Assembly (NCBI GenBank): GCA_030167145.1
Contig: CP126532.1
Coordinates: 1,590,001-1,622,000 of the forward strand
Origin: Ktedonobacterales bacterium
GTDB lineage: Bacteria > Chloroflexota > Ktedonobacteria > Ktedonobacterales > JADMIN01
Length of the DNA: 32,000 bases
Reading direction: 5' to 3'
Shown here: piece by piece, positions 13,791 through 32,000 of the stretch
How positions within the stretch are numbered: position 1 is the stretch's first letter
How the letters are laid out: every line of letters begins with the position of its first letter
Program-made: the position numbers and the translations under genes
Notes under the pieces: model-generated
Seen by the model: only the letters and a program-made list of their open reading frames with translations
Told to the model about the DNA's origin: nothing
Database searches by the model: none

Positions 13791-13849
13791 GAAATGTGAG
13801 TCTCGCCTCAACAACGTGACGCTGGTGTTTCCCAATGGAGGTATGCGCT

Positions 13850-15601
13850 ATGGCCGTCGCCGACCGTCCTGGTTCTCCACAGTTCCCCGCTATCGCTGGC
13901 GCTATCGCGCCTACCAGCCACGAGGCGATAGACGCGGCTATCGAAACGCTACAGCAGCGCAAAGACGCCTGGCTCGCCGTCTCGGTCGCGGAGCGCATCG
14001 CCCTGGTGGACCGGCTCATCACCGATAACTGGGTCATCGCGGATCGCTGGGTAGCCGCGTGCCTGAAGGCGAAGGATATCGCGCCGGATTCACCGATGCG
14101 CGGCGAGGAGTGGGCCACTGGCCCCTACACGCTGCTGCTGACGTTGCGCCAGATGCGCCAGTCGCTGGTAGACATCCAGCGCACGGGCAAGCCGAAGATT
14201 CCCGGTACCGTCACCACGCGCCCCGACGGGCAGGTGGTGGCGCGCGTCTTTCCGCAGAACGGCTACGATAAGCTCTTCTACACTGGCGTGACCGCTGATG
14301 TCTGGATGCAGCCAGGTGTCACCAAAGACAATCTCGCCGAGAACCAAGCGGTAATCTATTCCAAAAAGCCCGCCAGCCGCGTCGCTCTAGTGCTGGGCGC
14401 AGGCAATGTTTCCAGTATCGGACCGCTGGACCTGCTCTATAAACTGCTGGTCGAAGATCAGGTAGTGATCTTCAAGAGCAATCCGGTCAACGCCTATCTG
14501 GGTCCGCTGATGGAAGAGAGCTTCCGCGCGCTAATCGAGCCGGGCTACCTGCGCATCGTCCACGGTGGCGCGGAGGAGGGCGCGTATCTGTGTAACCATC
14601 CCGACGTGGACGAGATTCACATCACCGGCTCGGATAAGACCTTCGATGCCATCGTCTTTGGCCCTGGGCCAGAAGGCGCGGCGCGCAAAGCCGCGAATAC
14701 GCCGCTACTGAACAAGCGCATCACCGGCGAACTGGGCAACGTTAGCCCGGTGATCGTGGTTCCTGGCCCGTGGAGCGCCAGCGACCTCGACTATCAGGCG
14801 GCGCATCTGGTCTCGATGCTGACCAATAACGCGGGATTCAACTGCAACGCCACACGCGTTATCATCCAGCATGCGGGCTGGGGCAAGCGCGACGATCTGC
14901 TGCGTCGCATGCGCGCAGTGCTGCGCACTGTGCCGCCACGCGCGGCGTACTATCCCGGCGCGCGGGCGCGGCAAGAGAGCTTCGTCGCGGCGCACCCCGA
15001 CGCCGAACTCTACGGCACGCCCACCGCTGGCGATCAACTGCCGTGGACGCTGATCTCTGGCGTCAATCCCGCGAACACCGATGACATCTGTTTCACCACC
15101 GAGGCGTTCTGCAGCCTCTTCTCCGAAACGGCGCTAGAGGCCGCCAGCCCCGCTGAGTTCCTCGACCGAGCGGTGGCGTTTGCCAACGATTCGCTCTGGG
15201 GCACGCTGAACGTCACGATTCTGATTCACCCGAAGACGCTCAAAGATCCCGCCGTCGCCGCCGCATACGAGCGAGCCATCGCCAGCCTGCGCTATGGCAC
15301 GGTCGGCGTCAACTACTGGGCAGGCACCAACTTCGTGCTTGGCGTCACGACGTGGGGCGCATTCCCGGGGCATCCGCTCAACGATATTCAGTCGGGCAAC
15401 GATGTAGTGCATAACTCGCTGATGTTCGCTCGCCCGCAGAAGACCGTGCTGCACGCGCCGTTCCGCTCGACGCCCATCCCGCCGTGGTTCGTAACGCGGG
15501 CCACGGCGGGCGCGAAGGTGTTCCCGAAGCTCGCCGCGTTCGAGGCGCACCCATCGTCCGCAAAGGTGCCGGGCATCGTCGCGGCAGCCCTGGGCATGTG
15601 A
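13850..15601 (+). CDS. Aldehyde dehydrogenase superfamily protein
   Basis: Start moved to ATG 13850 (GGAGG 8 nt upstream). ALDH features: FKSNPVN, ITGSDKTF, GELGNVSP (catalytic Glu region), NAGFNCNATR (catalytic Cys region). Substrate unknown. Confidence 0.88.
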   Translation: MAVADRPGSPQFPAIAGAIAPTSHEAIDAAIETLQQRKDAWLAVSVAERIALVDRLITDNWVIADRWVAACLKAKDIAPDSPMRGEEWATGPYTLLLTLRQMRQSLVDIQRTGKPKIPGTVTTRPDGQVVARVFPQNGYDKLFYTGVTADVWMQPGVTKDNLAENQAVIYSKKPASRVALVLGAGNVSSIGPLDLLYKLLVEDQVVIFKSNPVNAYLGPLMEESFRALIEPGYLRIVHGGAEEGAYLCNHPDVDEIHITGSDKTFDAIVFGPGPEGAARKAANTPLLNKRITGELGNVSPVIVVPGPWSASDLDYQAAHLVSMLTNNAGFNCNATRVIIQHAGWGKRDDLLRRMRAVLRTVPPRAAYYPGARARQESFVAAHPDAELYGTPTAGDQLPWTLISGVNPANTDDICFTTEAFCSLFSETALEAASPAEFLDRAVAFANDSLWGTLNVTILIHPKTLKDPAVAAAYERAIASLRYGTVGVNYWAGTNFVLGVTTWGAFPGHPLNDIQSGNDVVHNSLMFARPQKTVLHAPFRSTPIPPWFVTRATAGAKVFPKLAAFEAHPSSAKVPGIVAAALGM

Positions 15602-15619: not shown

Positions 15620-16606
15620 TCAGGCGACGCCGAAGCTAAGGCCAAGCTGGCGCAGCCAGGTGCGATAGGCGATGGCGACGCGGTCGGAGCGCAGATGCAG
15701 TTCGGCCTGCAAGTCGAGCGGCAGCAATTCTGGCCGCTGCGACTCCACGACCACGCGATCTTCCTCGAAGATGCGCAGGATGCGCGGGGAATAGATGGTC
15801 TTGAGCGCGGCGCTATCGGTAATCTCATCTGTTTGGGCAGCCGCGATGATGAACCATCCAGTGCTGTCCAGTTCGTCGTGCGGGGTGATGGCCAGCATCA
15901 GGCCAAAACTGCCCTCACCTACCGACTTGCTAAAGTGGGCGGTGAGTGGCCGGTAGGCATGATAGGTGTAGTGGACCAACCCCGCCGTGCCGCCGAAGGG
16001 GTCGGGCTGATAGACTTCGATGGGGTCAGACTCCACGCCGTCTGGCCCGATGCGTACCTGGAAGTCGCCGATTTCGGGATGTTCGGGATCGCCCAGTACG
16101 CCCGCATGGACGTATGGGAAGTGCGCCGCATCAAGGAAATTTTCGACCAGGCGCGGGCCATGCGCCTGCACGTGCCGTGCTGGCTCGCAGACCGCCGTGA
16201 CGAATTCTGGCTGGGCATCTTCGGGGAACGGCGGGATGTCGTTCGCTGGCTCGCCCAGGCACACCCAGAGCAGGCCGTAGCGCTCCTGAAGCTGGTAGCG
16301 CTTCACCCTGGCCTTGACTGGCGGCGTCTGGCTGGGGTGCGCGGGCATGTGGACACACGCGCCCTCCTGGTTATAGGTCCACCCATGATAGGGGCAGCGC
16401 AGGCAATCATCCACGATTTTGCCGAGCGAGAGCTTCGCGCCACGGTGGACGCAGAGATCACGCCAGGCGTGATACTGGCCATCCATCTTCCACAATACCA
16501 GGTCTTCGCCGAGCAGGCGCACACTCAGAATAGGCTGCTCGTCGAATTGATCGGGCGTTGCGACGGGATGCCAGTCGTTGACCAGTACGGGATCGTTCCT
16601 CAACAT
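15620..16606 (-). CDS. Rieske [2Fe-2S] non-heme-iron oxygenase (VanA/PAO-like alpha subunit)
   Basis: Track start trimmed to ATG 16606 (GGGGAG upstream; MLRNDPVLVNDWHPV). Rieske CVHRGAKL...CPYHGWTY (CxH...CxxH) and mononuclear iron site NFLDAAHFPYVH. Confidence 0.88.
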   Translation of the reverse strand: MLRNDPVLVNDWHPVATPDQFDEQPILSVRLLGEDLVLWKMDGQYHAWRDLCVHRGAKLSLGKIVDDCLRCPYHGWTYNQEGACVHMPAHPSQTPPVKARVKRYQLQERYGLLWVCLGEPANDIPPFPEDAQPEFVTAVCEPARHVQAHGPRLVENFLDAAHFPYVHAGVLGDPEHPEIGDFQVRIGPDGVESDPIEVYQPDPFGGTAGLVHYTYHAYRPLTAHFSKSVGEGSFGLMLAITPHDELDSTGWFIIAAAQTDEITDSAALKTIYSPRILRIFEEDRVVVESQRPELLPLDLQAELHLRSDRVAIAYRTWLRQLGLSFGVA

Positions 16607-16722
16607 CGCAAGACTCCCCTTCCAGGCGCTCGTGCGGTGGATAGAGACGATCAATGCTGGTGCGCGTCGGGCTACCACCACCGCAGGGAGCCGCCGCGCG
16701 GATGTGTCGTGTGCCGGGAATG

Positions 16723-18288
16723 CTAGCGCGCTACATCGGGCATGGTGCGTTCCACTGCTCGCAGGACGCGCTCAGAACGAATGAGTATCGCCAGGGTTTC
16801 GATATCCGGAGTGGTCTCGCGGTCGTGGTCTAAAAACGCCACCCGCTCGCGCACGATGTCGTAGGCCGCGTGGGTGGCCTGCCCCAGCCGGGCGGGTCCA
16901 TCAGGGCGCAGGTCAATGGCCTGGGCAGCGGTAAGCAACTCGATGGCGATGATGTGGCGCACGTTCTCCACGATCTCCAGCGCGTGGCGAGCGGCGTTTG
17001 CGCCCATACTAACGTGGTCTTCCTGATTGGCGCACGAGGGAACGGAGTCCACGCTATCGGGATGCGCCAGCGTTTTGTTATCAGAGACGAGCGCGGCGGC
17101 GGTGTACTGCGGCATCATCAGGCCGCTATCCAGCCCGCTGGATGGGGCAAGCATGGCGGGCAGGCCGTTGCTGAGTTCCGGGGTAAGCAGGCGGAAGGTG
17201 CGCCGCTCGGAGATGTTGCCCACCGAAGAGAGCGCGATGCCCAGGAAATCCAGCCACATGCTCGGCCCCTGCCCGTGAAAGTTGCCGCCAGAGACCTTGA
17301 ACGCCTCGTTCGTATCCGCGAAGATCAGCGGATTGTCCGACGCAGCATTGAGCGCCGAGGTGAAGCGCTCGCGGAGGAAGGTGATGGTGTCACGCGCCGG
17401 GCCGAGCACGTGGGGCGTGCAGCGCAAGCTATACGGGTCTTGCACGCGCTCCGGATCCGAATCAATGAACTGGCTGCCCTGCAGGAGCGCGCGCAGGTTG
17501 GCGGCGGTCGTGACCTGGCCTGGCTGTCGGTTGGCCTCGTGCAGCGCGGGATGCAGCGCCTCGGAGAGTCCGCAGAGCGCCTCGAAGCTGAGCGCGGCGG
17601 CGATTTCCGCATGCGCAATGAGGACTTCGGCGTCGTGCAGGGCCAGCGCACCCGCCGCGACCATCAGCGTGGTGCCGTTGGTGAGCGCGAGACCTTCTTT
17701 CGCTTCCGGGACGACACGCTCCAAGCCAGCGCGCGCCATCGCATCCGCGCCGCTCATCAGCTCGCCCTGATAATACGCCTGCCCACTGAAGCCGCCATCC
17801 TCGCTTTCGTCACGGGTCAACACCACCGCGATATGCGCCAGCGGAGCAAGATCGCCGCTCGCGCCGAGCGAGCCTTTACGCGGCACCCAGGGTGTGACAC
17901 CGCGATTCAGCATCTCGATCAGCAATCCGGCGACCTGCGGACGGATGCCAGAGTTGCCGGGCGCGAACATATTCGCACGAATGAGCATCATCGCGCGGAC
18001 GACTTCGATGGGCAGCGGCTCGCCGACACCGACGAGGCAGGTGAGGATGAGATTGCGTGACAACTGCCGCGCTTGATCGGGCGCGATACGCACCCGCGCC
18101 AATGAGCCGAAGCCGGTGTTGACGCCATAGACCACCTTGCTGTCGCTCGCGATCACGCCGGCGATCCACTGGCGGCTGGTCTCCATGCGTGCGACGACTT
18201 CGGGCGAATACGGCGCGACCTGCTCCGCGTGGCGGGCGACGGCAACGACATCCGCGATGGAGAGTTCGCTACCTGTAAGTTGGAGCAT
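16723..18288 (-). CDS. MIO-dependent aromatic amino acid/histidine ammonia-lyase family enzyme (substrate uncertain)
   Basis: 521 aa. MIO triad in GSLGASGDLAPLAHIA (ASG encoded at 17854-17862), plus YGVNTGFG, LTNGT, QDPYSLRC, GGNFHGQ and SANQEDHVSM. The selectivity pair is Thr83-Cys84 (18037-18042), not the Ser-His of HAL. Confidence 0.92.
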   Translation of the reverse strand: MLQLTGSELSIADVVAVARHAEQVAPYSPEVVARMETSRQWIAGVIASDSKVVYGVNTGFGSLARVRIAPDQARQLSRNLILTCLVGVGEPLPIEVVRAMMLIRANMFAPGNSGIRPQVAGLLIEMLNRGVTPWVPRKGSLGASGDLAPLAHIAVVLTRDESEDGGFSGQAYYQGELMSGADAMARAGLERVVPEAKEGLALTNGTTLMVAAGALALHDAEVLIAHAEIAAALSFEALCGLSEALHPALHEANRQPGQVTTAANLRALLQGSQFIDSDPERVQDPYSLRCTPHVLGPARDTITFLRERFTSALNAASDNPLIFADTNEAFKVSGGNFHGQGPSMWLDFLGIALSSVGNISERRTFRLLTPELSNGLPAMLAPSSGLDSGLMMPQYTAAALVSDNKTLAHPDSVDSVPSCANQEDHVSMGANAARHALEIVENVRHIIAIELLTAAQAIDLRPDGPARLGQATHAAYDIVRERVAFLDHDRETTPDIETLAILIRSERVLRAVERTMPDVAR

Positions 18289-19485: not shown

Positions 19486-22400
19486 GTGATCGCCACAACG
19501 CGACCAAACCGGCAAACCAGCGTATCGGTTTCCGCCTGGAAGTTCGAGGCGCCACGGCTGCCCGATGCGCTGCTGCCACGGCCCCATTTGACGGACCGGC
19601 TTGAGCGCTGCCTCGGACGGAAGCGTGCCAGCGGCGATGTGTTCTTGCTCAGCGCGCCCGCAGGCTATGGCAAGACGACGGCGCTGGCACAATGGGCGAA
19701 GCGGACGCCGATGCCTGTCGTCTGGTATCACCTGGATGCCAGCGATGATGATCTGGTGATCTTCCTGAGTGGTCTCATGGAGGCGCTGCGTGCGCGTCTG
19801 CCGCAGAGCGAGTGGGAGGTGGAGCGGCTGCTCACGCGGACGCATCGAGGGGCGCTCTCGGCGCTGGATGCGCGCCGGGCCACCGCGCTGTTGATTCGCG
19901 ATATCGCGCGCAATGTGCAGAAGCCGCTGGCGCTGGCGCTGACGGGCATCTCTGAGTTGAGCGAGAATAGCGCCGCGCAGGCGACACTCAATACTTTGCT
20001 GGCGCGCCCTGCCGACCATCTGCGTCTGGTGATCGAAGCGCGAGAGGTTCCGCGCATTCGTGTGGCGCAACTGCTGACGCAACACCGACTTGATGGTATG
20101 GGAGCCGATGATCTGTGCCTGCGCGACGACGAGTTGGAGGCGCTGCTGGACCTGATCGGCATCTCCGCCGATGCCAACTACATCGAGTCGCTGCGTGCGT
20201 TGAGTGGTGGATGGATTACTGGGGTACTGCTGGCTACGGGAGGGTTGCTGCCGAGCTTTCTGCCAGCGGGAGCAGCGGATTTCGACCGCGAGCGGGTCAT
20301 CGAGTATCTGGCGGCGGAGGTGCTGGAGCAGCTTCCGGCAGAGTTGTATGGTTTCGCACGGGAAGCCGCCGTGTTGAGCGCGATGACTGCGCCGCTCTGC
20401 GATGACCTGCTGGGTATGAGTGAGGCCCGCGAGTACCTCAGCGCGCTTGAGCGGCGCACAGGCTTCGTGACGCGCATCGGGCGGCGTCCGCAAGAACCCA
20501 TATACCGTTTCCAGCCATTGCTGCGCCAGGCGTTGCTCGAGCGGATGGACGAGGAGCCGGGGGGGCCGAAGCGCCGCTGTACACTGCATGCGCGTGCCGG
20601 GGAGTTGCTCGAAGCGCTGGGTGATTACGAAGAAGCGGTGCGGCAATATGCCGAGGCGGAGCGCTTTGACCGTGTCCTCGCTCTGATCGAGGCCAGGCGC
20701 AGTTCGCTGTTGCGCGCGGGCAGAGGCGCAACGCTGGTACGCTGGCTGGATCTGTTGCCCGAAGCGGTGCGCGCCGACCACCCCGATCTGCATGTGCTCG
20801 TGGCTGAACTCTACCGCCAGACGGGACGCATTGCCGAGGCAGAGGCGGCCAACGCGCGGGCGTGCGCGCTGATCTTGCCGGATGCCAAGGCGCATCCCAC
20901 GCTGGCGGCGCGGGCGCTCTACATGCGGGCTGTGCTGGCGTCCACGCACAATGACTATGCCGCCGCACGGGAAGATTGCGAGGCGGCGCTACGCTACGCG
21001 CCGCTGGACGCCGATGAACTGCGGGTGCAGATTGGCTTCCAGATTGCCAGCATCCTGGGCGGGGCGGATCCCATCGCGGCGCTGGCGGAATTGAGTAGCA
21101 TCGAAGAGCGGTGCGCGCGCCTGCGCGACCTGTGGGCGCTGGCCCGGTTGCACTATCTGCGCTCTGGCCTGCTGATGACGCGCGGCGTGTATCGTGAGGC
21201 AGAGCAAGCCGCATTGGCGTCGTTGCGCTACGCGCAAGAGGGCAACGATGAGGTGGATGCGATCATCAGCCGCTTGAATCTGGGCGCGATCAAGAATCTT
21301 CAGCGGCAGCCAGCGGCAGCGCGGGAACACTTTGAGATTGCCAGCGCCCAGGCCGAAGCGGCAGGCTACGCGCTGGGCCGTGTGTATGCGCTGATGAACC
21401 TTGCCGAACTGGAATTGAACACGGGGCAGATCGAGCGCGCGGTTGAGGTATATGCGGTGGCTCAGGCTGCCGCCGATGAGGCCGGCGATACGCACCTGTG
21501 TACGGTCATTGCGTGGGGCATGGGCTATGCGCTGACGCTGCTGGGGCGCGCCGATGAGGCTTGCCAATTGCTGACGGATCGGATGGAGGCCAGCGACGCG
21601 GGTATGCGCGTGGAGGGTTGGACCGCGCTGATGACGGCGCGCGGATTCGCGCAACAGCGCGCGGGTGATGTCGCGTCGGCGATCATGTCGTTCGAGCAGG
21701 CAATCGCGCGGGCAGAGGCGGGCGGAGCCGCGACCAAGGTGGCTATCGCACGACTGCATCTGGCCGCCGCATTGCTGACGCAGCGCGACAAGAGCGGCGC
21801 AGCGGTGGCGCTGGGTGCGGCGCTGGATGGCATCGCCGGGCCGGAGGGCGTGCCACAGGTGAGTTTCGAGGCGCGCCAACTGCCAGAGTTGCGCCCGCTG
21901 CTGAGCAAGTCGCGCCACCCCGCTGCCGTAGCATTGCTGACTGAGCTTGCGCCTGATGCGGAGGCCGCAACGCAGGTGCTCGCCGGTCGCACGTCTGGCG
22001 CTGAGGTCTCCGCAATGGGAGCCTTGCGCGTCTTTGCGCTGGGTGAGGCGCGGGTCTTCGCTGGCACAAACCGGATCACCCGCTGGCGCATGCCACATGC
22101 GCGTGAACTGCTCTACTTCTTGCTGGACCGGGGTGAGCCGATGCGCAAGGAGGTGATTCTCGAAACGTTCTGGCCGGATAAAGACCCGGAGAGTACCGAT
22201 AACACCTTCAGGCAGGCGCGCTTCCGCCTGAAGCAGGCCTTGGGGCAGGAATGCCTGGTGCAGGAGGGCGGGCGCTGGCGGCTGACGGTGGACTGCTGGT
22301 ATGACGTGCATGAGTTCGAGCGGCTGGCGACCGAAGGCGAGCGGCTGGCGACCGAAGGGCAGCTTGCCGCTGCCGTTACCGCGCTGAAACAGGCGCTGAC

Positions 22401-22773
22401 CTATTGGACCGGCGATTTTCTGGATGACCTGTATTCCGATTGGGTGGTCGAGCGGCGCGACACCTTGCGGCGGCGCTATCTGGCAAGCCTGGACCTGCTC
22501 GCCGATCTGGAGGCGCGGCTGGGCCAGCACGAAGATGCCGCGCAACGCTACTTTCTGATCCTCGAAGCCGAACCCTATCGCGAGAGCGCACATCGCGGCC
22601 TGATGCGCTATTATCAGCGGCGCGGCGAGTTGACCCAGGCCGTACAGCAGTTCGCGCGCTGCTACACGGTGATTAAGCAGGAAGTGGGGGCTGCGCCATC
22701 GCGCGAGACGGTCCAGTTGTATCAGACGATCCGCTCGCGGCTGGACGGCAAAGGCGTGGCTGTGCGTGCGTGA
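19486..22773 (+). CDS. STAND-type (MalT-like) NTPase / TPR regulator with C-terminal SARP module (OmpR-type wHTH + BTAD)
   Basis: GTG start with AAGGAG 8 nt upstream. Walker A LLSAPAGYGKTT (about 19654-19680), a long TPR-like helical repeat region, then from about 22021 LRVFALGEARVF...RELLYFLLDRGEPMRKEVILETFWP (wHTH) and YWTGDFLDDLYSDWVVERRDTLRRRYL...AHRGLMRYYQRRGELTQAVQQF (BTAD). Confidence 0.9.
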   Translation: MIATTRPNRQTSVSVSAWKFEAPRLPDALLPRPHLTDRLERCLGRKRASGDVFLLSAPAGYGKTTALAQWAKRTPMPVVWYHLDASDDDLVIFLSGLMEALRARLPQSEWEVERLLTRTHRGALSALDARRATALLIRDIARNVQKPLALALTGISELSENSAAQATLNTLLARPADHLRLVIEAREVPRIRVAQLLTQHRLDGMGADDLCLRDDELEALLDLIGISADANYIESLRALSGGWITGVLLATGGLLPSFLPAGAADFDRERVIEYLAAEVLEQLPAELYGFAREAAVLSAMTAPLCDDLLGMSEAREYLSALERRTGFVTRIGRRPQEPIYRFQPLLRQALLERMDEEPGGPKRRCTLHARAGELLEALGDYEEAVRQYAEAERFDRVLALIEARRSSLLRAGRGATLVRWLDLLPEAVRADHPDLHVLVAELYRQTGRIAEAEAANARACALILPDAKAHPTLAARALYMRAVLASTHNDYAAAREDCEAALRYAPLDADELRVQIGFQIASILGGADPIAALAELSSIEERCARLRDLWALARLHYLRSGLLMTRGVYREAEQAALASLRYAQEGNDEVDAIISRLNLGAIKNLQRQPAAAREHFEIASAQAEAAGYALGRVYALMNLAELELNTGQIERAVEVYAVAQAAADEAGDTHLCTVIAWGMGYALTLLGRADEACQLLTDRMEASDAGMRVEGWTALMTARGFAQQRAGDVASAIMSFEQAIARAEAGGAATKVAIARLHLAAALLTQRDKSGAAVALGAALDGIAGPEGVPQVSFEARQLPELRPLLSKSRHPAAVALLTELAPDAEAATQVLAGRTSGAEVSAMGALRVFALGEARVFAGTNRITRWRMPHARELLYFLLDRGEPMRKEVILETFWPDKDPESTDNTFRQARFRLKQALGQECLVQEGGRWRLTVDCWYDVHEFERLATEGERLATEGQLAAAVTALKQALTYWTGDFLDDLYSDWVVERRDTLRRRYLASLDLLADLEARLGQHEDAAQRYFLILEAEPYRESAHRGLMRYYQRRGELTQAVQQFARCYTVIKQEVGAAPSRETVQLYQTIRSRLDGKGVAVRA
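22318..22359 (+). repeat. In-frame 21-bp tandem duplication (ERLATEG x2) inside the regulator gene
   Basis: GAGCGGCTGGCGACCGAAGGC (22318-22338) is followed directly by GAGCGGCTGGCGACCGAAGGG (22339-22359), 20 of 21 identical and codon-aligned. Confidence 0.95.
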
Positions 22774-23516: not shown

Positions 23517-24428
23517 TCAGCGCCGCTGGACGCGCGTGAGCAGGCGATAGAGGCGCTTGGCGAGAGGCGTGAGCAGCGGGATGGTAAGGATGCGGCCAGC
23601 CAGGGCGGCGCGAATCAGGCGGAGCCAAGTGAGCAGGCTGATGAGGCCGAAGAGCGCGCCGAGGACAAGGATAGCCAGCCCAGCCACGACGTTGAAGCGC
23701 AGGTCCGGGGTGATGCTGCCCGCGCCGATCAGCACGAGCCAGAAGGCGATCTGGGCGAGGAGCAGCGCGGCGAAGAAGATGAGGGCGAGCGCGGCGTGCG
23801 CGCGGATGAAGTGGTTGCGCCGCTCGCGAATGAGCAGCACGAGGGCGGGCACGATGGGAAAGGCATATGCGAGCGCGGCCAGCACACGTGGGTTATGCTG
23901 GCGGCCTGGATGCGGGGCCATATGCTGGCTGCTGGCGGGCGCAGGGGCAGGCGATGGCGCGGCGGCGTGCGTGCGCGTTGGGGCGACGGGCGCGGACATA
24001 GGGGGTGCTGGCGGCGTGGGGGCAATGCGAGGTGTCGGTTTGGCTGATGGCTTTGCCGCGGATGCTTTGGGTGCTGCTGTGTTCGCTGTGGTGGGGCCAG
24101 GATAGACACCGGTGTATTTGGGGCGCGGTGGGGCAGCCGGGCGTGAGGCGCTGGCGCTGGATTGGCGGGACGCGGACGGCGTGGTGGGACGGGATGTGCT
24201 GGCGTTGCCTTGTGGAGACACGGGTGGTGTGGGCAATGTTAACGTCGCGGGCTGCGGCTCTGGCTGGCTCAGTTCCAGCGGCGGCTGGGTGGGAAGCTGA
24301 GCGGACGGCTGAGCGGACGATTGGGCGCGCGAGTGGTTGGCGTTGCGTTGGGGTGTAGCCTGGCGCGCACTACGGGTAGTGCGGCGGCGTGGGTTGCTGG
24401 AGTGGTGGCGCTGCGTACCGCTCGGCAT
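23517..24428 (-). CDS. Pro/Ser/Ala-rich membrane protein with DUF4870-like C-terminal domain
   Basis: ATG 24428 has AGGAG just upstream and overlaps the upstream gene by 59 nt. About 170 aa of low complexity, then LAALAYAFPIVPALVLLIRERRNHFIRAHAALALIFFAALLL plus further TM segments. The DUF4870-like ER-N-F-R-HA motif is recalled from memory. Confidence 0.6.
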   Translation of the reverse strand: MPSGTQRHHSSNPRRRTTRSARQATPQRNANHSRAQSSAQPSAQLPTQPPLELSQPEPQPATLTLPTPPVSPQGNASTSRPTTPSASRQSSASASRPAAPPRPKYTGVYPGPTTANTAAPKASAAKPSAKPTPRIAPTPPAPPMSAPVAPTRTHAAAPSPAPAPASSQHMAPHPGRQHNPRVLAALAYAFPIVPALVLLIRERRNHFIRAHAALALIFFAALLLAQIAFWLVLIGAGSITPDLRFNVVAGLAILVLGALFGLISLLTWLRLIRAALAGRILTIPLLTPLAKRLYRLLTRVQRR

Positions 24429-25140
24429 AAGCTCCTACAATCGGCAGATGGAGATAATGGCCGGTCCAGGCGGCGATCATCGCAAAGAGCCAGATACCGG
24501 GAATGACCAGAATGCCCGCAATCCACGCAAGTCCGTTGCCAAGCGTGCCAAAGAAGGTCCAGTGGGTGGCGGTGGTGAGATCGAGGCAGAGCGCCCGCAG
24601 GATATAGACGAGCACGCCGAAGACGGTGAGCACGCTGGTGAGCAAGACGGACTGCATGGCGTGGAAGCGGACGTAGCGGTTGGTGCGTTCGTTGAAGTAG
24701 ACGAGCAGACCGGAGAGCCACCAGAAGAGGTAGCTGGCACCGGCGGCGGTGTTGGCGGTGAAGGTGATGGTGGTCGGACCCCAGGATTGCGCGACCTGCC
24801 AGGGGACGTGGGTGCGGATGGGTGACGGCGCGGCTAGCGGCGGTGCGGCTAGCGGTGGCGACGGCATGCGGGGCATGGCGCGGTTCGGCAACCAGGGCGC
24901 GGACATGGGCGGCGGTGGCGGGGTGGCATCCTGCAGGGTGCGCGCGTTCGGATCATTCGCCACGCTGGCGGATTGCACTGGGCCGCTGAGGCGCTCCGCG
25001 TGGGGGCGGGCGTCGAAGACGGTCTCTTGCGCGTCGGGCGAGGCTTCGTCGGAGACGAATGCGCTGTGCCCGCTGTCACTCTGGCTATTGGTTGGTTTCA
25101 GTTCCATTGCTCCGCCCCCTCCCTGAACACTGCCCATCAT
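24370..25140 (-). CDS. Pro-rich membrane protein with DUF4870-like C-terminal domain
   Basis: Start is ambiguous: GTG 25161, ATG 25140 or 25137 directly after AAGGAGG, or ATG 25107. C-terminal GASYLFWWLSGLLVYFNERTNRYVRFHAMQSVLLTSVL plus 2-3 further TM segments. Paralogous in layout to 23517-24428. Confidence 0.6.
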   Translation of the reverse strand: MMGSVQGGGGAMELKPTNSQSDSGHSAFVSDEASPDAQETVFDARPHAERLSGPVQSASVANDPNARTLQDATPPPPPMSAPWLPNRAMPRMPSPPLAAPPLAAPSPIRTHVPWQVAQSWGPTTITFTANTAAGASYLFWWLSGLLVYFNERTNRYVRFHAMQSVLLTSVLTVFGVLVYILRALCLDLTTATHWTFFGTLGNGLAWIAGILVIPGIWLFAMIAAWTGHYLHLPIVGAYAERYAAPPLQQPTPPHYP

Positions 25141-25167
25141 CCTCCTTAGACGAGCGACCACTGGCGT

Positions 25168-26031
25168 TTAGCCACCAACATAGCGCAAGTATTCATCGGC
25201 GAGTGCGCTGAACTGCTTGTGGGGGCCGTTGCCGCCGAATTTCTGGCGCAGCGATGGCATTGGCTCTTCGACATCGGCTGCCTCGGCGACCTCCACCGCT
25301 TCGGTGATGATGGTGTTGAAGATCGGCGGATGGATGCCGGGGATGGCGTCGCGGCGCATGCTGATGACGGTCTGCTTGTGCAGGCGGCTGGTGGGGCGAT
25401 AGCGCGAGACGACGATGCCCAGGCCGAAGATTTCGTGCTGAGCGCGCAGGGCGAAGTCGGCCATGCGGTCGAGCACGAGGGGAACGCCGAGAGTGGAGAG
25501 GATGTCGGGCACCACGGGGATCAGGAAGTAGCGGCTGATGGCGATGCCGTTGAGGGTGATGACGCCCAGGTTTGGCGGGCAGTCTATCAGCACGTGGTCG
25601 TAGTGCGGAAGCACATCGCGCAGGGCTTCGCGCAGGGCATAGACAGGCCCGGAGCGGAAGGTGTCCAGGTCGGCGATTTTGGTGATTTTATCCTGGATGC
25701 GATGCAGGCGAATGCTCGCGGGGAGCAGATCCAGGCCAGGGACGCCGCCCGCGACATTGGAGACGCGGGTCATGATGGCTTCTTGGGCGGAGAAGAGACG
25801 GGTGTTGTCAAGCTGATCTTTGAAGAGTTGATAGAGTGTTTGCCCGCTCTGATCGCGCTCACGCCAGCGGCGCTCTGTGACCATGGCAATGGTGGCGTTG
25901 GTTTGTGGGTCCAGGTCAATGACGAGGACACGTTTGGAGTGTTCGCCCGCCAGATAGTGCGCCAGCGCGACGGTGAGTGTGGTCTTGCCTACGCCGCCCT
26001 TGAGGTTGATGATGCTCGTTACGACTGCCAT
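25168..26031 (-). CDS. ParA/MinD-family (deviant Walker A) ATPase, orphan
   Basis: Start taken at ATG 26031 (MAVVTSIINLKGGVGKTT); the track start is GTG 26070. KGGVGKTT, VLVIDLDPQTNAT and VLIDCPPNLG match ParA/Soj. No ParB-like gene is recognisable nearby. Confidence 0.88.
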   Translation of the reverse strand: MAVVTSIINLKGGVGKTTLTVALAHYLAGEHSKRVLVIDLDPQTNATIAMVTERRWRERDQSGQTLYQLFKDQLDNTRLFSAQEAIMTRVSNVAGGVPGLDLLPASIRLHRIQDKITKIADLDTFRSGPVYALREALRDVLPHYDHVLIDCPPNLGVITLNGIAISRYFLIPVVPDILSTLGVPLVLDRMADFALRAQHEIFGLGIVVSRYRPTSRLHKQTVISMRRDAIPGIHPPIFNTIITEAVEVAEAADVEEPMPSLRQKFGGNGPHKQFSALADEYLRYVGG

Positions 26032-26140
26032 CCCCCGCAACCCTCCAGTATAACGGGTTTCCCCGCTCACGTTCTCTATGCTATGTCGGTCAGGATACGT
26101 GCTCTACATGTATAACGTCTACCTCGACATTGAGTACAGT

Positions 26141-27547
26141 TCATCCTACCGAAGATGCGCGCTGGTGTCCAGTCTGTGGGACTTGCGCGGCTTTGGGCAG
26201 CCCACGGATGGGGGTGCGCTGATCGTCTATGTCCTCGAGCGCGCGGCCCAGGGCGAAGAGGTTATCCAGGTTGTTGGCGGGCAGGAAATCATCAATGTAG
26301 GGCAGGGCGGCACGCATGCCCGCGGTGACGGGGCGGTAGTCGTCTTGCCCCAGCAGCGGATTGAGCCAGATGAGCCGGTGGCAGTTGCGTTGCAGGCGGG
26401 CCATTTCTTCGCCAAGGATGCGCACATCGCCGCGATCCCAGCCGTCGCTGATGATGAGGACGACAGCGCCACGCCCCAGCACGCGCCGCGCCCAGCGGAA
26501 GTTGAAGGTGCGGAGCGAGTCGCCGATGCGAGTGCCGCCGGACCAATCTTGCACGGTGCGGGTGACGTCGCGGATGGCTTCGTCTACGTCGCGGCGGGCG
26601 AGTTGGCGGGTGATGCGGGTGAGGCGCGTGCCAAAGACGAAGGTTTCGACGTTGCCGAGGCCGTTGGCGACGGTGTGGGTGAAATGGAGTAGCAGCCGCG
26701 AGTAGAGGCTCATGGAGCCGCTGATGTCGCAGATGATGACGAGTGGGCGCGGCTTGCGGCGGATGGTGCGGCGGGCGAGTTCGACTGGCTCGCCAGCGGT
26801 ACGCAGGCTACGGCGGAAGGTGCGGCGGAGATCGAGGCGTTTGCCGTGGCGAGCGGGGCGGAGCCGCCGGGTGTTGCGTTCGCCGAGGCGCCAGCGCTTG
26901 CGTTCCATCAGTTCGCGCGCTTCTTGCAGTTCGTCCCAGGTGAATTCTTCGAAGTCTTTGTGGCGCAGCACTTCGTCGTGGCTGAAGGTATGGGAGCGGT
27001 CGCTGTCGTCGGCGTTGTCGTCGCGTTTGCTGCGGCGGGCTTCGGCGAGCCGCGAGGCGGGGTGGCGCTGATGTTCGTTGAGGCGCGTGCCAGCGCGCTT
27101 GTGGGTGTGCTGGTCGTCGGGTGGCTTGCGATGGGCGGGCAGGGCGAGTGGACGGCCACGGCGGGCGTTTTCGGGTTCAGGACGATTGCCGCCGTCTTTG
27201 CCGCTGCTTTGGGGTTGCCAGAAATAGGCGAAGGCGGCGTCGAAGATGGCTTCTTGCTCGTGCTTGGAGACGAGAGAGACTTTGAGGAAGGTGTAGAACT
27301 CGTCGCGGCGGCCCACATCTATTAGCGGGAGGCTGTGGGCAACTTCGACGACACGACCGGGTCCGACATCTAGCCCCAGCTCCCAGAGAAGCCGGGCGAA
27401 ATCTACGATGCGAGCGAGAAGGAGTTCGCCCTGGGCACGGTCGAGCGCGGTGAGGGGCCGCGCGTCCGCGAGGCGGGCAGCAGTGGTGGTGGCTGGCTCG
27501 CTATCGGGTGGCATGCTGGGCTGCGTTGCTGGATGGTCGTTGGTCAT
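26141..27547 (-). CDS. CoxE-type von Willebrand factor A (VWA) domain protein
   Basis: 468 aa. CoxE-like middle region (FSHDEVLRHKDFEEFTWDELQEA...RRLRPARHGKRLDLRRTFRRSLRTAGEP) and a VWA domain with MIDAS VIICDISGSMS, GGTRIG, VVLIISDGWDRG, IWLNPLLG. GGAG lies 6 nt upstream of the ATG. Confidence 0.9.
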   Translation of the reverse strand: MTNDHPATQPSMPPDSEPATTTAARLADARPLTALDRAQGELLLARIVDFARLLWELGLDVGPGRVVEVAHSLPLIDVGRRDEFYTFLKVSLVSKHEQEAIFDAAFAYFWQPQSSGKDGGNRPEPENARRGRPLALPAHRKPPDDQHTHKRAGTRLNEHQRHPASRLAEARRSKRDDNADDSDRSHTFSHDEVLRHKDFEEFTWDELQEARELMERKRWRLGERNTRRLRPARHGKRLDLRRTFRRSLRTAGEPVELARRTIRRKPRPLVIICDISGSMSLYSRLLLHFTHTVANGLGNVETFVFGTRLTRITRQLARRDVDEAIRDVTRTVQDWSGGTRIGDSLRTFNFRWARRVLGRGAVVLIISDGWDRGDVRILGEEMARLQRNCHRLIWLNPLLGQDDYRPVTAGMRAALPYIDDFLPANNLDNLFALGRALEDIDDQRTPIRGLPKAAQVPQTGHQRASSVG

Positions 27548-27612
27548 GCGGACTCCGGCTGGGATTGCGATTGGGCGGTGGCGCGGGCAGAGCGGCGTGC
27601 CACACCGGCTTC

Positions 27613-27621
27613 ACGATACCA
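27613..27621 (-). promoter_or_regulatory. Candidate extended -10 element TGGTATCGT upstream of the VWA gene
   Basis: Minus-strand TGgTATCGT about 66 nt upstream of ATG 27547, inside a 178-nt intergenic gap. Confidence 0.3.
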
Positions 27622-27725
27622 CCCACGCCATGCGGAAGGGAAGGGCGCAGATGGAACGAGTGGCACGGTGCGGGGGACAGATGCAGTCAGATGGGGGCAG
27701 GAGTTGTTGGAAGGCGGCAACGTGC

Positions 27726-28826
27726 TTAGGGGGATTTGGCGTGCGGTGGTAGGGGGACGGTGACGGAGACGGGCAGCGGCGCGGAGGGGTCATCCCATTC
27801 GGCGCGCTGGGTCAGGCGGATGAGCAGGACGAACATGGCGAGGTCGAGCAGGAGCATGAGTTGGGCGTCTATGAGGGAGGTGCGGAGGAAGAGGATGGGC
27901 GCGAGGAGCATGAAGTAGGTGATGACGCCGCTGGCTAGGGCGAGGCGCTGGGGGGCGCCCCAGGGTGCGAGGGTGGACCACTGGCGGATACGAATGGTGA
28001 GGGCAATGACGAGGGCGAGGAGTAGCGCGATGGGGATGAGGGCAAGAGGAATGAGGACGGGGAGAAGCCAGACGATGATGAAGACGGCGAGGGTGGCGCC
28101 AAAGCCGATGAGGCGCAACTGCCAGAGATGCGGGGCGGCGCGCAGGGCAGGGCGAGGCGCGGGCAGGCGCAGGCGGTGGCTGAGGATGATGAGCGCGACC
28201 ATGAGCAGGGCAGCGCCAAGGTAGGGGATGGCGGGCGGGTGGGGATAGCTCTTGTCTTTCGTATGGAAGCCCCAGGAGATTGCGCCCAGGATGGAGACGG
28301 CGGCGAGGAGGAGGAAGAAGAGCAGGACGCCGCCGGTGCGGAGCCAGGGGCGGCTGGCGACGCGAGGGAAGAGGGTGTCTACGATGACGATGGGAATGGC
28401 GATGCTGACGACAGCGTGGAAGATGGTGAGTTCACCGGCCCAGAGCCAGTTGACGCCCCAGGCGCGGCCATAGACGCCGAGCAGACCAACGCCAGCCTGG
28501 GGGTTGAACCAGGTGTTGGTGATGAGGGCTTCTTCGAGGATGCCGTAGGCCGCGCCGAGGAGGAAGAGGCTGAACCAGGGGAGCTGGCGGCGGCGGACGA
28601 TCTCGCGGATGAGGATGGCGCCGGAGCCGTAGAGGGCGGCAGCCAGGGGGAAGCTGATGGGGTCGAGGATGATTTTGGTGGGCGGGGTGGAGGTGGAGAA
28701 GATTTCGCCGAGAATGGGCGCGAGCAGGAAGAGGGTGAGCGCGGCGGGCCAGACGCTGGCCGAGGCTCGACGCTGCCGTGCGGAGGTGGGCGCGGCGGTG
28801 AGCGGTGGGTTGGGCGTCGGGTACAT
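27726..28826 (-). CDS. Hypothetical polytopic membrane protein
   Basis: Track start (TTG 28913) trimmed to ATG 28826 (GAGGAG 10 nt upstream; MYPTPNPP). At least 8 hydrophobic segments, with conserved-looking YGSGAILIREIVRR and GAAYGILEEALITNTWF. No family recognised. Confidence 0.6.
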   Translation of the reverse strand: MYPTPNPPLTAAPTSARQRRASASVWPAALTLFLLAPILGEIFSTSTPPTKIILDPISFPLAAALYGSGAILIREIVRRRQLPWFSLFLLGAAYGILEEALITNTWFNPQAGVGLLGVYGRAWGVNWLWAGELTIFHAVVSIAIPIVIVDTLFPRVASRPWLRTGGVLLFFLLLAAVSILGAISWGFHTKDKSYPHPPAIPYLGAALLMVALIILSHRLRLPAPRPALRAAPHLWQLRLIGFGATLAVFIIVWLLPVLIPLALIPIALLLALVIALTIRIRQWSTLAPWGAPQRLALASGVITYFMLLAPILFLRTSLIDAQLMLLLDLAMFVLLIRLTQRAEWDDPSAPLPVSVTVPLPPHAKSP

Positions 28827-28879
28827 GTGCCAGGCTCTCCTCGTTGGCTGATGTCTGGGTGGATGATGATGCGCGTGTG

Positions 28880-28913
28880 CTTGTAGCATGGCGATGTTGG
28901 GCGATGCTGTCAA
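28880..28913 (-). promoter_or_regulatory. Candidate promoter of the membrane-protein gene (perfect -35 TTGACA)
   Basis: Minus-strand TTGACA at 28913-28908. The -10 options are CATGCT with a 17-nt spacer (28890-28885) or TGcTACAAG (28885-28880). The TTG that the track used as a start codon is part of this -35 hexamer. Confidence 0.35.
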
Positions 28914-28980
28914 GCCTTTTGTGCGGATTGTGGATTGATTGGTTTGGATTTGGGCGAGCGGACGGTTGAAATCGCGCAGA

Positions 28981-29000
28981 GGGCGAGGCAGGCCTCGCCC
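28981..29000 (-). terminator. GC-rich hairpin about 80 nt downstream of the repeat-ORF stop (weak terminator candidate)
   Basis: GGGCGAGG-CAGG-CCTCGCCC forms a perfect 8-bp stem with a 4-nt loop. The downstream minus-strand tail TCTGCGCGATTTC is only weakly U-rich. Confidence 0.3.
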
Positions 29001-29079
29001 CTACACATGCTGTGGGTTGGGAGTCGGGGCAGGTTCAAAGGTAGGTTGGAAAAGTGCGTCAAGGCTGGAGCGCAGGCGA

Positions 29080-30684
29080 TCAGGCGCTGCGCTTGCGGCG
29101 GGTGGCGGTGGCTGATGGGGCGGGTGACTCGCTGCCCCAGAGTGAGGTTTGGGTGGGAGTGGCCGGAGTGGCCGGAGTGGCCGGTTTTTGATGACGGCGG
29201 ACAGGAATGTCCGCCCCACCGGGTGCAGTGGCCGGAGTGGCCGGTTTGCGCGGTTGGGTGGGGGTGGGTGACGGGAGATGGCGGGAAGTGACGGAAGATT
29301 TTTCGCCGTTTTCGCCGCGAATCGCAGTGGCCGGAGTTGCCGATTTGGCCGGAGTGGCCGTTGTGGCGGCTGCCGGAGTTGCCGATTCTGCCGATTTGCG
29401 CGAAGGGGTGTGGGGAGATGACCGGAATCGGCTGGAGGTGTCGGGAGAATTTTCGCCGTTTTCGCCGCGAATTCGCCGATGTGGAGGTGCCGGAGTTGCC
29501 GATTCTGCCGATTTTTGAGTTTGCGCGCTGAGCACGGTGGGTGATGTGGCTGGTTCTCGGCCTGAAGCGCTGGGGGTAATCCCTCTCGTACGACTTCGGC
29601 GCTGGGTGGGACGGGCGGAAGATTTTTCGCCGTTTTCGCCGCGAATCGCAGAGATCGCAGTGGCTGATGCGGCAGGAGTTGCAGTTGGCGATTTCACCTT
29701 TGTTGAAGTGGCCGCTGTGGCCGCAGTTGGCAATTCGGGAGAGTTGGTTGGAGTTGCCGATTTTGCCGATTTTGCCGATTTTCGCGCACTGGCAGACAGG
29801 AATGTCTGCTCTACCGGAGTGGCCGATTTGGCCGGTTTTTGATGTTGGATGGTGCGCGGGTTGGGCGGTAGAGCAGCCTCTCGGCCTGAAGGACGCAGGT
29901 AATCCCGTTTGCGCGCGGATTGTGGTGGGCGAGCAGTGTCGGACGCTGCTGGAGTGGCCGTTTTCGCTGTTTTCGCCGTCGTTTGGGGCGCCATAGGAGT
30001 GGCCGGAGTGGCCGATTTGGCCGGTTTTGCAGTTGGCGGTGTGGCTGGAGTCACAGTTGCCGATTTTGCCGATTTTGCAGTTACCGGAATGGCCGTAGTT
30101 GCAGTGACATGAGTTGCCGATTTTGCCGATTTCGGGGTGGCGGGAGTGGCGGGAGTTGCCGATTTTGCCGAATGCACAGCGGCCGATTTGGGCGATTTTG
30201 TTGTTGTGGCTGGGACGGTGGTACGGCGGGTGGGAAGGCGGTCGGGTTGTTCGGCGTCTGGGGTGAGCCAGCCAGAGACGCGCTTGATGGGGTCGCCTGC
30301 GGCGATGCCGATGAGGAAGTAGTGCGGCTTGAGGTGGTCGTTTGGCTCAAGGCGCAGAGTGGGAATCGGTGGGGCGATGGGGGCGGCGAGGTGGTTGCCG
30401 TTTTTGCCGTTTTTGGCGCGTTGGTGGCGCATGGAGCTGTCGGTGGCGCTGGGGTCGGTGGCATGCGCGCGGCGGGTGCGGCGGCGCGGAGGTGTGTTGC
30501 TCTCATTGGCGGCTCCGTTGCCAGAAAGCGTGGGGAGCGCTGAGGCGAGGAGGGTAGGATGTAGCTCGCAGGTGGTTGGCTCGTAGCCGGTGCGGTCGCG
30601 GTAGCGCTGGGCGGCGTTGGCGATTTTCAGGGCGATGGGGCGGCGAATATCGTCGTCGTACCAGAGCAATCCAGAGATAATCAT
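29080..30684 (-). CDS. Hypothetical protein: non-repetitive N-terminal domain plus long basic Lys/Ser/Ala/Thr/Pro repeat tail
   Basis: ATG 30684. N-terminal MIISGLLWYDDDIRRPIALKIANAAQRYRDRTGYEPTTCELHP and LRLEPNDHLKPHYFLIGIAAGDPIKRVSGWL look globular. From about residue 150 there are KSA(K/E)SATP and IRGENGEKSS repeats encoded by the nucleotide repeat tract. The coding status of the tail is uncertain. Confidence 0.5.
   Translation of the reverse strand: MIISGLLWYDDDIRRPIALKIANAAQRYRDRTGYEPTTCELHPTLLASALPTLSGNGAANESNTPPRRRTRRAHATDPSATDSSMRHQRAKNGKNGNHLAAPIAPPIPTLRLEPNDHLKPHYFLIGIAAGDPIKRVSGWLTPDAEQPDRLPTRRTTVPATTTKSPKSAAVHSAKSATPATPATPKSAKSATHVTATTAIPVTAKSAKSATVTPATPPTAKPAKSATPATPMAPQTTAKTAKTATPAASDTARPPQSARKRDYLRPSGREAALPPNPRTIQHQKPAKSATPVEQTFLSASARKSAKSAKSATPTNSPELPTAATAATSTKVKSPTATPAASATAISAIRGENGEKSSARPTQRRSRTRGITPSASGREPATSPTVLSAQTQKSAESATPAPPHRRIRGENGENSPDTSSRFRSSPHTPSRKSAESATPAAATTATPAKSATPATAIRGENGEKSSVTSRHLPSPTPTQPRKPATPATAPGGADIPVRRHQKPATPATPATPTQTSLWGSESPAPSATATRRKRSA
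29196..29215. repeat. Hairpin motif copy 1: GGCGGACA-GGAA-TGTCCGCC
   Basis: Perfect 8-bp stem with a GGAA loop on the + strand (UUCC on the mRNA-sense strand). Confidence 0.85.
29791..29810. repeat. Hairpin motif copy 2: GGCAGACA-GGAA-TGTCTGCT
   Basis: Same hairpin, with G:C changed to A:T at stem position 4 and G:T at the outermost pair. The loop is identical. Confidence 0.85.
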
Positions 30685-31077
30685 GGGACTGTATCCTGCC
30701 GTTCGGTGATGGATTCGGATGGGCGCGCTATTTAGAACTTCCGTTCAATGGACTGTAATCCGGTTGTGGGGTGGTGTCAAGGGCGCTGCTCAAGATTGGC
30801 GACGAGTTTTGGGGCTGGCTAGTAGCGATGGGCGAGGGGGGTGGGACTTCGGGGTGCGGGGAGAGAGTGGAGCGAGCAGATGGGAATGGGCAGGATGGAG
30901 GGTGGACAGCGGAGGGTGGACAGTGGAGGGAGATGATGAGGTGGACATGGGACGGGGGAGTGGAATACGCTGGGGGGCAAGGAGATGCGGTGTCGCCACG
31001 TAGCATACGACGCGAGAGATGGGGCGTTAGGATGCTGTGCGGAGGTGGCGGAACGGCGCTGGCGAAGCTCGCCGAAG

Positions 31078-31115
31078 CTCAGCATAGGGGAGCATTCGGC
31101 ATGTATTATGCTGAG
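31078..31115 (+). promoter_or_regulatory. Perfect 9-bp inverted repeat CTCAGCATA-N20-TATGCTGAG upstream of the PAS sensor gene
   Basis: Arms at 31078-31086 and 31107-31115. The spacer contains GGGGAG (31087-31092) and ATG 31101. Candidate operator or 5' stem-loop. Confidence 0.4.
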
Positions 31116-31216
31116 ATCTATGCCCCGACTGGCCATGTGGAAATCGGGCTGGTAGTGTGCCAGACGAACGAGCGACACCAGGTTGCAACACGCGAAAGCG
31201 GGGGGCGAGAAGCGGC

Positions 31217-32000
31217 ATGGATGAGACAGACGATGCTCAGATAGTAGTTGAGACATGCCATCTAGCTGGTGGGATGGCAGGGGGGACTGAGCAGCACGGT
31301 AGCAATGGAGTGGGGCCATTGGACGCAGAGGCGCGCGCACGGCGAGCGGAAGAGCAGCTTGAGGCGTTTTGGAATCGGTATCAGGCGCTGGCGCAGACGT
31401 TGGCGCAGATTCTGTGGACGACTCCGGCTGATGGTCTGGTGGATGATATGCCGATGTGGCGGGCGTTCACGGGGCAGAGTGTGGAGCAGGTACGGGGATG
31501 GAACTGGCTGGAGGCGGTTCACCCGGAGGATCGGGCGCGAGTGAAGCGTTTGTGGAAGCGTGCGGTGATGACGGCGACGCAGACGAACCTGGAGTATCGT
31601 GTGCGGCGGCGCGATGGGGAATATCGGTGGTTTCTGGATCGTGGGACGCCGGTGCTGGAGGCTGATGGGCGCGTGCGCGAGTGGATTGGCTTTTGTACGG
31701 ATATTACGGAGCATAAGCAGGCGGAAGAAGAGCGGGCGCGGCTGTTGATGCGCGAGCAGGTGGCGCGGATGGAGGCGGAGGAGGCGCGGACAGCGGCGGC
31801 GATAGGCGAGCGTGAGTCGGAGGCAGTGTTCGAGGCGATGACGGATGGGGTGGTGGTGCTGGATCGGGTGGGGCAGATCATCCGCATGAATCGTGCGGGA
31901 ATCAAGCTGGTGGGGCTGGATACGCTGGCCAATCCGGGGGCGGACTTTTATGAGTTGCCGGTGGCGGAACGCGCGGCGCGCATTGAGATGCGGGATGCGC
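31217..32000 (+). CDS. PAS-domain sensor protein (probable histidine kinase or other signalling protein), 3' end outside window
   Basis: This frame is not in the track because it has no stop before the window end. It is open from 31115, with ATG 31217 (alternative ATG 31274). My translation gives LWTTPADGLVDDMPMWRAFTGQSVEQVRGWNWLEAVHPEDRARV...EYRVRRRDGEYRWFLDRGTPVLEADGRVREWIGFCTDITEHKQAEE (PAS), a coiled-coil linker, then a second PAS start (EAVFEAMTDGVVVLDRVGQIIRMNRAG). Confidence 0.8.
   Translation, partial: MDETDDAQIVVETCHLAGGMAGGTEQHGSNGVGPLDAEARARRAEEQLEAFWNRYQALAQTLAQILWTTPADGLVDDMPMWRAFTGQSVEQVRGWNWLEAVHPEDRARVKRLWKRAVMTATQTNLEYRVRRRDGEYRWFLDRGTPVLEADGRVREWIGFCTDITEHKQAEEERARLLMREQVARMEAEEARTAAAIGERESEAVFEAMTDGVVVLDRVGQIIRMNRAGIKLVGLDTLANPGADFYELPVAERAARIEMRDA

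Follow-up and report, generated by a model that had tools for sequence, protein, structure and literature searches.

A histidine ammonia-lyase homologue lacking His83 is paired with a Rieske oxygenase in Ktedonobacterales: a tentative aerobic route for N-methylhistidine

RESULTS

Genes at the locus and identity of the lyase

The window analyzed in this study is a 32,000-nt stretch from the genome of a soil-type Chloroflexota bacterium (Ktedonobacterales), the minus strand of which encodes a 521-aa MIO-dependent ammonia-lyase (16723..18288) and, 116 nt downstream, a 328-aa Rieske non-haem iron oxygenase (15620..16606) that starts with an ATG behind a ribosome-binding-like GGGGAG. TIGR01225, PDB matches, an AlphaFold/Foldseek comparison and a lyase tree place the former in the His83-less (X-Cys) clade of the histidine ammonia-lyase (HAL) family; Pfam (Rieske and VanA_C domains) and PDB matches place the latter in the GxtA/SxtT/NdmA subfamily, and we propose that it is an N-demethylase. 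An atypical aldehyde dehydrogenase (ALDH) gene on the plus strand (13835..15601) converges on the Rieske gene with the two stops (15601 and 15620) 18 nt apart, an arrangement already recognized in an earlier reading of the locus from its letters (hereafter the sequence-only reading). The ALDH is 588 aa long and matches PF00171 only weakly, and in four genomes of genus g22 its counterpart carries one TAG within the match. A scan for promoters and terminators found nothing.

Residues 53-124 of the lyase align without a gap to residues 52-123 of P. putida HAL, and Thr83-Cys84 (18037..18042, minus strand, read 18042-18037) fall on Ser82-His83; the same offsets lead to H89/L90 of R. sphaeroides TAL, an established selectivity site (PMC9002059), and to positions 107/108 of Anabaena PAL. 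The non-canonical pair reported by the sequence-only reading is thus confirmed in position. Conservation, however, extends to one residue of the two: in a set of 120 homologues with 66-100% identity to the lyase, 118 of the 119 sequences covering the site have Cys84, whereas position 83 is occupied by T, N, L, A, S, Q or V. Thr83 was therefore discarded as a signature residue, and the mark of the clade is the loss of His83 rather than Thr-Cys. In the same homologue set the catalytic residues Y54, A143-S144-G145 (the MIO-forming triad, 17854..17862, minus strand, unchanged throughout), N204, Q283, Y286, R289, N319, F337 and E423 (17020..17022, minus strand, itself invariant) are invariant or nearly so, which bears out the earlier statement that all catalytic hallmarks of an MIO lyase are intact.

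Compared with HutH (P. putida 1B8F/1GKM; T. acidophilum 7TQR; TIGR01225), the lyase has the same fold and MIO triad and holds equivalents of Tyr53, Asn195, Gln277, Tyr280, Arg283, Asn313, Phe329, Met382 and Glu414, but it differs in His83 to Cys, Ser82 to Thr, a Cys for the Ser before ANQED, NFHG followed by QG instead of [QE]P, and in being a paralogue coupled to a Rieske gene. Met391, which we take to be the counterpart of HAL Met382, the other proposed zinc ligand, is invariant in the 120 homologues. The third substitution, Cys419 (17032..17034, minus strand), presumably lies in the pocket, as judged by PAL/TAL structures, and constitutes a second pocket change. It occurs in 7/7 members of the Rieske-linked subclade described below, in 19/32 lyases linked to a variant urocanase, in 0/20 linked to an ordinary urocanase and in 2/123 His-type lyases; 28 of the 30 best matches to the lyase carry Thr-Cys in combination with Cys419.

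The lyase passes the hutH cut-offs (TIGR01225, 580 vs 539 bits; PRK09367, 599 vs 524 bits) and falls below those for PAL (262/519, bits/cut-off), FlxA TAL (308/700) and BagA (266/1000). The PF00221 features (Ala-Ser-Gly triad, catalytic Tyr, helical fold) are present, and two PAL/TAL features are absent, the pair being Thr-Cys and not Phe-Leu or His-Leu, and Glu423 standing where PAL and TAL carry Gln at the HAL Glu414 site. An aminomutase, which the sequence-only reading had entertained, is not supported, given scores under all three PAM/TAM cut-offs (396/800, 375/501 and 191/1250 bits), a score over the hutH cut-off and the HAL-type Glu423. In GkHAL, E411D abolished activity and H82L abolished activity on histidine (PMC11432326). 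The top PDB matches are HALs, as are the top Foldseek matches (TM ~0.87) of the AlphaFold model (pLDDT 89, with loop 415-423 of low confidence), and the closest named homologues (79-88%) are from Ktedonobacterales. By sequence, then, the lyase belongs to the HAL family and is predicted to work like HutH; filing it as plain HutH is nevertheless unsuitable because the His83 feature is absent. No N(tau)-methylhistidine ammonia-lyase model was present among its NCBIfam matches, and a search of the literature, in which few subscription journals were covered, returned no paper on a Cys variant.

The lyase and Rieske genes form a conserved two-gene unit

The lyase clade is rare, being found in 4/61 relatives and 2/401 genomes of the phylum, and an orthologue of the Rieske protein (75-78% identity) occurs in exactly the same genomes, always adjacent to and directly downstream of the lyase. 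In the relatives the two genes overlap or almost touch, and the pair recurs at three further assembly loci (L114, L115 and L170). The linked Rieske orthologues form one clade of their own, and a single member of the Rieske-linked lyase subclade (L172) has no adjoining Rieske gene. The pair is a real, conserved two-gene unit, and the adjacency noted in the sequence-only reading is a lasting one.

The ALDH does not share this history. It is present in 50/61 relatives, lies on contigs other than that of the lyase unit in G014 and G016, and stands beside the lyase at no other locus examined; the cassette therefore merely neighbors an ALDH gene in this window, and the ALDH was dropped as a pathway member, contrary to the earlier proposal that it performs a third step. 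Neither a transporter nor a reductase is part of the unit. The suggested check for a reductase partner accordingly found none adjacent, although an unlinked FAD/NAD/Fer2 reductase gene lies at C1:3.69 Mb of the host; each of the four module genomes has a homologue of it, but so do 41/61 relatives.

The Rieske protein has the CxH...CxxH cluster motif and a His/His/Asp iron site. The sequence-only reading called it VanA/PAO-like; its closest solved relatives proved instead to be GxtA (5e-69) and SxtT (4e-65), which outrank NdmA (5e-45) and NdmB (1e-34). It shares the Rieske and mononuclear-iron motifs and full-length similarity with NdmA/NdmB (6ICK, 6ICL) and GxtA/SxtT (6WNC, 6WN3), and departs from them in a divergent substrate-binding half, in the absence of an adjacent NdmD-like reductase and in its coupling to an MIO lyase. 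Rieske relatives that occur without a lyase have GNAT genes upstream, their neighborhoods gave no clue to substrate, and no clade lyase was found in the one such genome that was searched; conversely, five genomes with hut-clustered clade lyases held no Rieske homologue. A literature search that covered few subscription journals yielded no report in which an MIO lyase is connected with a Rieske demethylase. As a separate observation, the genes after a 53% Rieske paralogue encode an amidohydrolase and a cytosine/purine permease in two genomes that belong to a single genus (L291:7352-11198, and L295), and a methylated nucleobase is a possible substrate for this paralogue.

Ordinary hut genes of the host

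The window contains no hutU or hutI, as the sequence-only reading had remarked. This absence carries no weight, since the host's own ordinary hutH, hutU and hutI are scattered (C1:5.06, 3.26 and 4.60 Mb, respectively), and the lack of nearby hut genes was set aside as evidence on substrate. A Ser-His HAL and one ordinary HutU are encoded in the host (G000) and in two pair-bearing relatives (G014 and G016); the window lyase is thus a paralogue, the host having an ordinary Ser-His HAL as well. Searches of G000 and G016 for a variant HutU returned none, and the single urocanase of the host is an ordinary one and not a dedicated methylurocanate hydratase. In G010, which is 75% complete, neither a Ser-His HAL nor an ordinary urocanase was seen.

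Descent and gene neighborhoods of the His83-less clade

A tree of 129 lyases was built by a quick IQ-TREE analysis (SH-aLRT support only, midpoint rooting, one third of the Ser-His rows included). In it, the proteins that lack His83 and contain NFHG[QEAG]G fall into a single clade of 79 rows (SH-aLRT 98), which is embedded in the Ser-His HALs. Within this clade the Thr-Cys proteins linked to a Rieske gene make up a subclade (SH-aLRT 99), with a Gln-Cys/Asn-Cys group as sister. Phylogenetic placement, which the sequence-only reading had named as a check on its non-histidine lyase, thus speaks against that idea. Most other clade members reside in clusters with hutU, hutI and FtcD genes, and the substrate is for that reason probably an imidazole amino acid and not Phe or Tyr. 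The earlier preference for a substrate outside the histidine family had been made conditional on hut genes not being conserved partners of the same variant elsewhere; such partners were largely found, for X-Cys relatives that include Thr-Cys proteins (L153 and L035), and the preference could not be sustained.

The clusters are of two kinds. Kind A combines an ordinary urocanase, with all substrate motifs kept, and a HutI whose metal-binding His is followed by Gln; the Gln-Cys/Asn-Cys sister group is accompanied by both, and by descent the window lyase is closest to this kind. Four MAGs of unstated completeness (G432, G434, G436 and G438) yielded no PF00221 gene other than the clade member, which lies next to ordinary HutU. 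Kind A lyases probably deaminate histidine, so that Cys84 would be compatible with histidine as a substrate. Asn-Cys lyases at six loci (L152, L206, L208, L212, L213 and L216) are divergently paired with another ALDH, of 541 aa.

Kind B, to which many anaerobic clade members belong, contains a variant urocanase with rewritten substrate motifs (QYTA, RDNLD, NPTFESE) and retained catalytic Asp and Arg, together with a HutI that, wherever the motif could be read, has Ala at the site after the metal-binding His where solved HutI structures have Glu or Gln. The variant urocanase adjoins 32 lyases without His83 (Cys, Asp or Asn; several phyla), which are distributed over at least four tree branches, and only one Ser-His lyase, a second lyase gene in locus L231; ordinary urocanases adjoin 40 His-type lyases. 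The FtcD genes of these clusters imply an unsubstituted C2 in the substrate. Ser-His lyases also occur in G437, G441, G442 and G443, and ordinary urocanases in G433, G437 and G443, which makes kind B an add-on route. MttB, MtmB-like or corrinoid genes stand beside 5/21 kind B, 0/13 kind A and 1/67 His-type loci; the difference between 5/21 and 1/67 (Fisher p 0.003) is overstated since kin are not independent, and with the same non-independence that between kinds B and A is not significant (p 0.13). Because three enzymes each lose a ring-contacting side chain, FtcD needs a free C2-H and methyl-transfer genes lie nearby, we infer that the kind B clusters fit a ring-N-methylated histidine as substrate. 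The variant urocanase was not found in the 400 Bacillales and 401 Chloroflexota genomes sampled, in a search that had a control, and it scores far below the cut-offs of the thiourocanate hydratase models NF058530 and NF058531 (612/930 and 644/880 bits). A paper search covering few subscription journals returned nothing on a methyl-urocanate hydratase.

The variant cluster merits description in its own right. At L195:2985-4718 and some 30 further loci (among them L035, L039, L042, L066, L071, L090, L105 and L176-L178), a His83-less lyase, the variant urocanase (motifs QYTA, EMCPCHD, RDNLD, NPTFESE and QANYS), a HutI with HxDAY, FtcD and sometimes MttB/MtmB occur together in Chloroflexota, Fusobacteriota, Bacillota, Actinomycetota and others, and the cluster is a candidate methylhistidine pathway. 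At L071:1171-4922 (G443) the variant urocanase is present twice in tandem, with a TAA inside one match; the same genome has five PF00221 genes, two of them without the ASG triad. Ser-His lyases with ANKED in place of ANQED were seen at L166/L334 (G437 C1:1309842-1314460) and L281, and that of G437 adjoins a corrinoid protein and an MtmB-like gene.

DISCUSSION

A possible methylhistidine lyase and Rieske demethylase

The account that we favor, with middling confidence, is that the two-gene unit deaminates N-methylhistidine to N-methylurocanate, N-demethylates the latter and leaves the remainder to ordinary HutU. The substrate would be a histidine methylated on a ring nitrogen, with N(tau)-methylhistidine as the likeliest form, a preference over N(pi) that leans on published precedent and on HAL models. 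The MIO lyase would remove ammonia by ordinary HAL chemistry, the smaller Cys in place of His83 and the Ser-to-Cys change at 419 providing space for the N-methyl group. The Rieske oxygenase would then hydroxylate the N-methyl group in the manner of NdmA acting on caffeine, with electrons from an unlinked reductase, yielding formaldehyde and plain urocanate that could enter the host's HutU/HutI route.

Several lines of evidence point this way: the co-occurrence and adjacency of lyase and Rieske genes across genomes; the Ser-His HAL and ordinary HutU in G000, G014 and G016, with no variant HutU in G000 or G016; the nesting of the clade in HALs and mostly in hut-type clusters; the variant urocanase and Ala-type HutI beside His83-less lyases, and the MttB/MtmB/corrinoid neighbors of variant-cluster lyases; and the presence of Cys419 both in the Rieske-linked subclade and among variant-linked lyases, against its absence from the ordinary-HutU group. 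In addition, bicyclic, N-rich ring systems serve as substrates of the closest solved Rieske enzymes, of which NdmA and NdmB are N-demethylases (PMC12445004), and a bacterial N(tau)-methylhistidine pathway is on record (Beliaeva et al. 2022, PMID 35758414, as cited in PMC11432326). Given Cys419, a spare copy beside HAL and an oxygenase in the place that B12 methyltransferases or a dedicated hydratase take in anaerobic relatives, lyase to N-demethylase to HutU is the simplest reading. It is weakened by the Gln-Cys/Asn-Cys sister group with ordinary HutU and the sole-lyase members of four MAGs, by the nature of the best Rieske matches (GxtA and SxtT are C-H hydroxylases, not demethylases), by L172 and its missing Rieske gene, by B12 methyltransferases that also stand beside a Ser-His lyase (G437) and a lyase fragment (G433), by 400 Bacillales genomes in which no variant urocanase was found, and by a unit that has no transporter or reductase.

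The same sister group, with its Gln-type HutI, and the sole-lyase MAGs lend some weight to a fairly unlikely alternative in which the lyase is a second HAL, Cys84 replacing His83 as metal or hydrogen-bond partner, and the Rieske enzyme either converts a methylated histidine to histidine beforehand by demethylation or is unrelated. The score above the hutH cut-off and the invariant Met391 agree with it; a Ser-His HAL already present in the host, the fixation of Thr-Cys plus Cys419 in nearly all best matches while Cys419 is missing from every ordinary-HutU-linked member, and the loss of histidine activity in GkHAL H82L (PMC11432326), though Leu is not Cys, do not.

That GxtA and SxtT outscore NdmA, and that the C-terminal domain of the Rieske protein is too divergent for substrate assignment, would also suit a different substrate, a small N-heterocyclic amino acid or a histidine modified in another way, whose acrylate product would be hydroxylated on ring or side chain after the fashion of GxtA and SxtT, in catabolism or toward a specialized metabolite, and S-Me-THD-like genes do lie near two clade loci (L178 and L240). 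We consider this improbable: no conserved biosynthetic or tailoring genes surround the pair, and the FtcD and methyltransferase neighbors of the relatives better match an N-methyl group. Still less probable is a scheme resembling the sequence-only reading, in which a Phe/Tyr/DOPA-type or methoxylated aryl-alanine is deaminated, the Rieske enzyme performs O-demethylation or hydroxylation and the ALDH oxidizes the product, or in which the lyase is an aminomutase. A few HAL-like enzymes accept aryl-alanines, and the loss of His83 makes a more apolar pocket. Positions 137/138 are known to steer selectivity (PMC9002059), and the Rieske protein has a VanA_C domain. Against these points stand scores far under the PAL/TAL/PAM/TAM cut-offs, the HAL-type Glu423, the nesting of the lyase in a clade tied to hut clusters, the unlinked ALDH and the lack of genes for a CoA-ligase or for ring cleavage next to the Rieske-linked loci.

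Comparison with known routes and significance

The N(tau)-methylhistidine pathway of Beliaeva et al. (PMID 35758414) would share its substrate and first step with our proposal; it reportedly includes a dedicated hydratase, of which none was found here, where the oxygenase would instead remove the methyl group. Ergothioneine-type catabolism (ergothionase 6S7J) is likewise a HAL/HutU-derived route for a modified histidine; ergothionase, however, lacks the MIO triad, whereas the window lyase retains ASG and Phe337 and scores 228 bits against 6S7J versus 338-378 bits against HALs.

Actin, myosin and anserine are sources from which methylhistidines are released, and to our knowledge only one bacterial route for them has been characterized, that of Beliaeva, Atac and Seebeck (2022), which reportedly retains the methyl group at the step of a dedicated hydratase and has glutamate and N-methylformamide as end products. 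We tentatively suggest, at somewhat less than even confidence, that the His83-to-Cys lyase and the Rieske N-demethylase form an aerobic N-methylhistidine route into the ordinary Hut pathway, an O2-dependent counterpart of the wider variant cluster. If this is true, it would be a second, oxygenase-based bacterial methylhistidine route, with a new MIO lyase selectivity code (X-Cys combined with Cys419) as well as a new Rieske enzyme for N-demethylation; we know of no other Rieske N-demethylase for a monocyclic imidazole. Even if the lyase takes histidine, the clade would show that His83 is dispensable, which would weaken substrate prediction from a two-residue code and affect many proteins now annotated hutH.

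Other features of the window

Three further genes and a compositional feature of the window were recorded. Positions 19486-22773 encode a regulator of 1095 aa that has a MalT-like ATPase at its N terminus and a SARP/AfsR-like domain at its C terminus, and a CoxE-like VWA gene lies at 26141-27547. An ORF at 29080-30684 (minus strand) contains many tandem repeats of 9-24 nt and has no Pfam match, and GC skew reaches +0.3 to +0.4 across 24000-32000.
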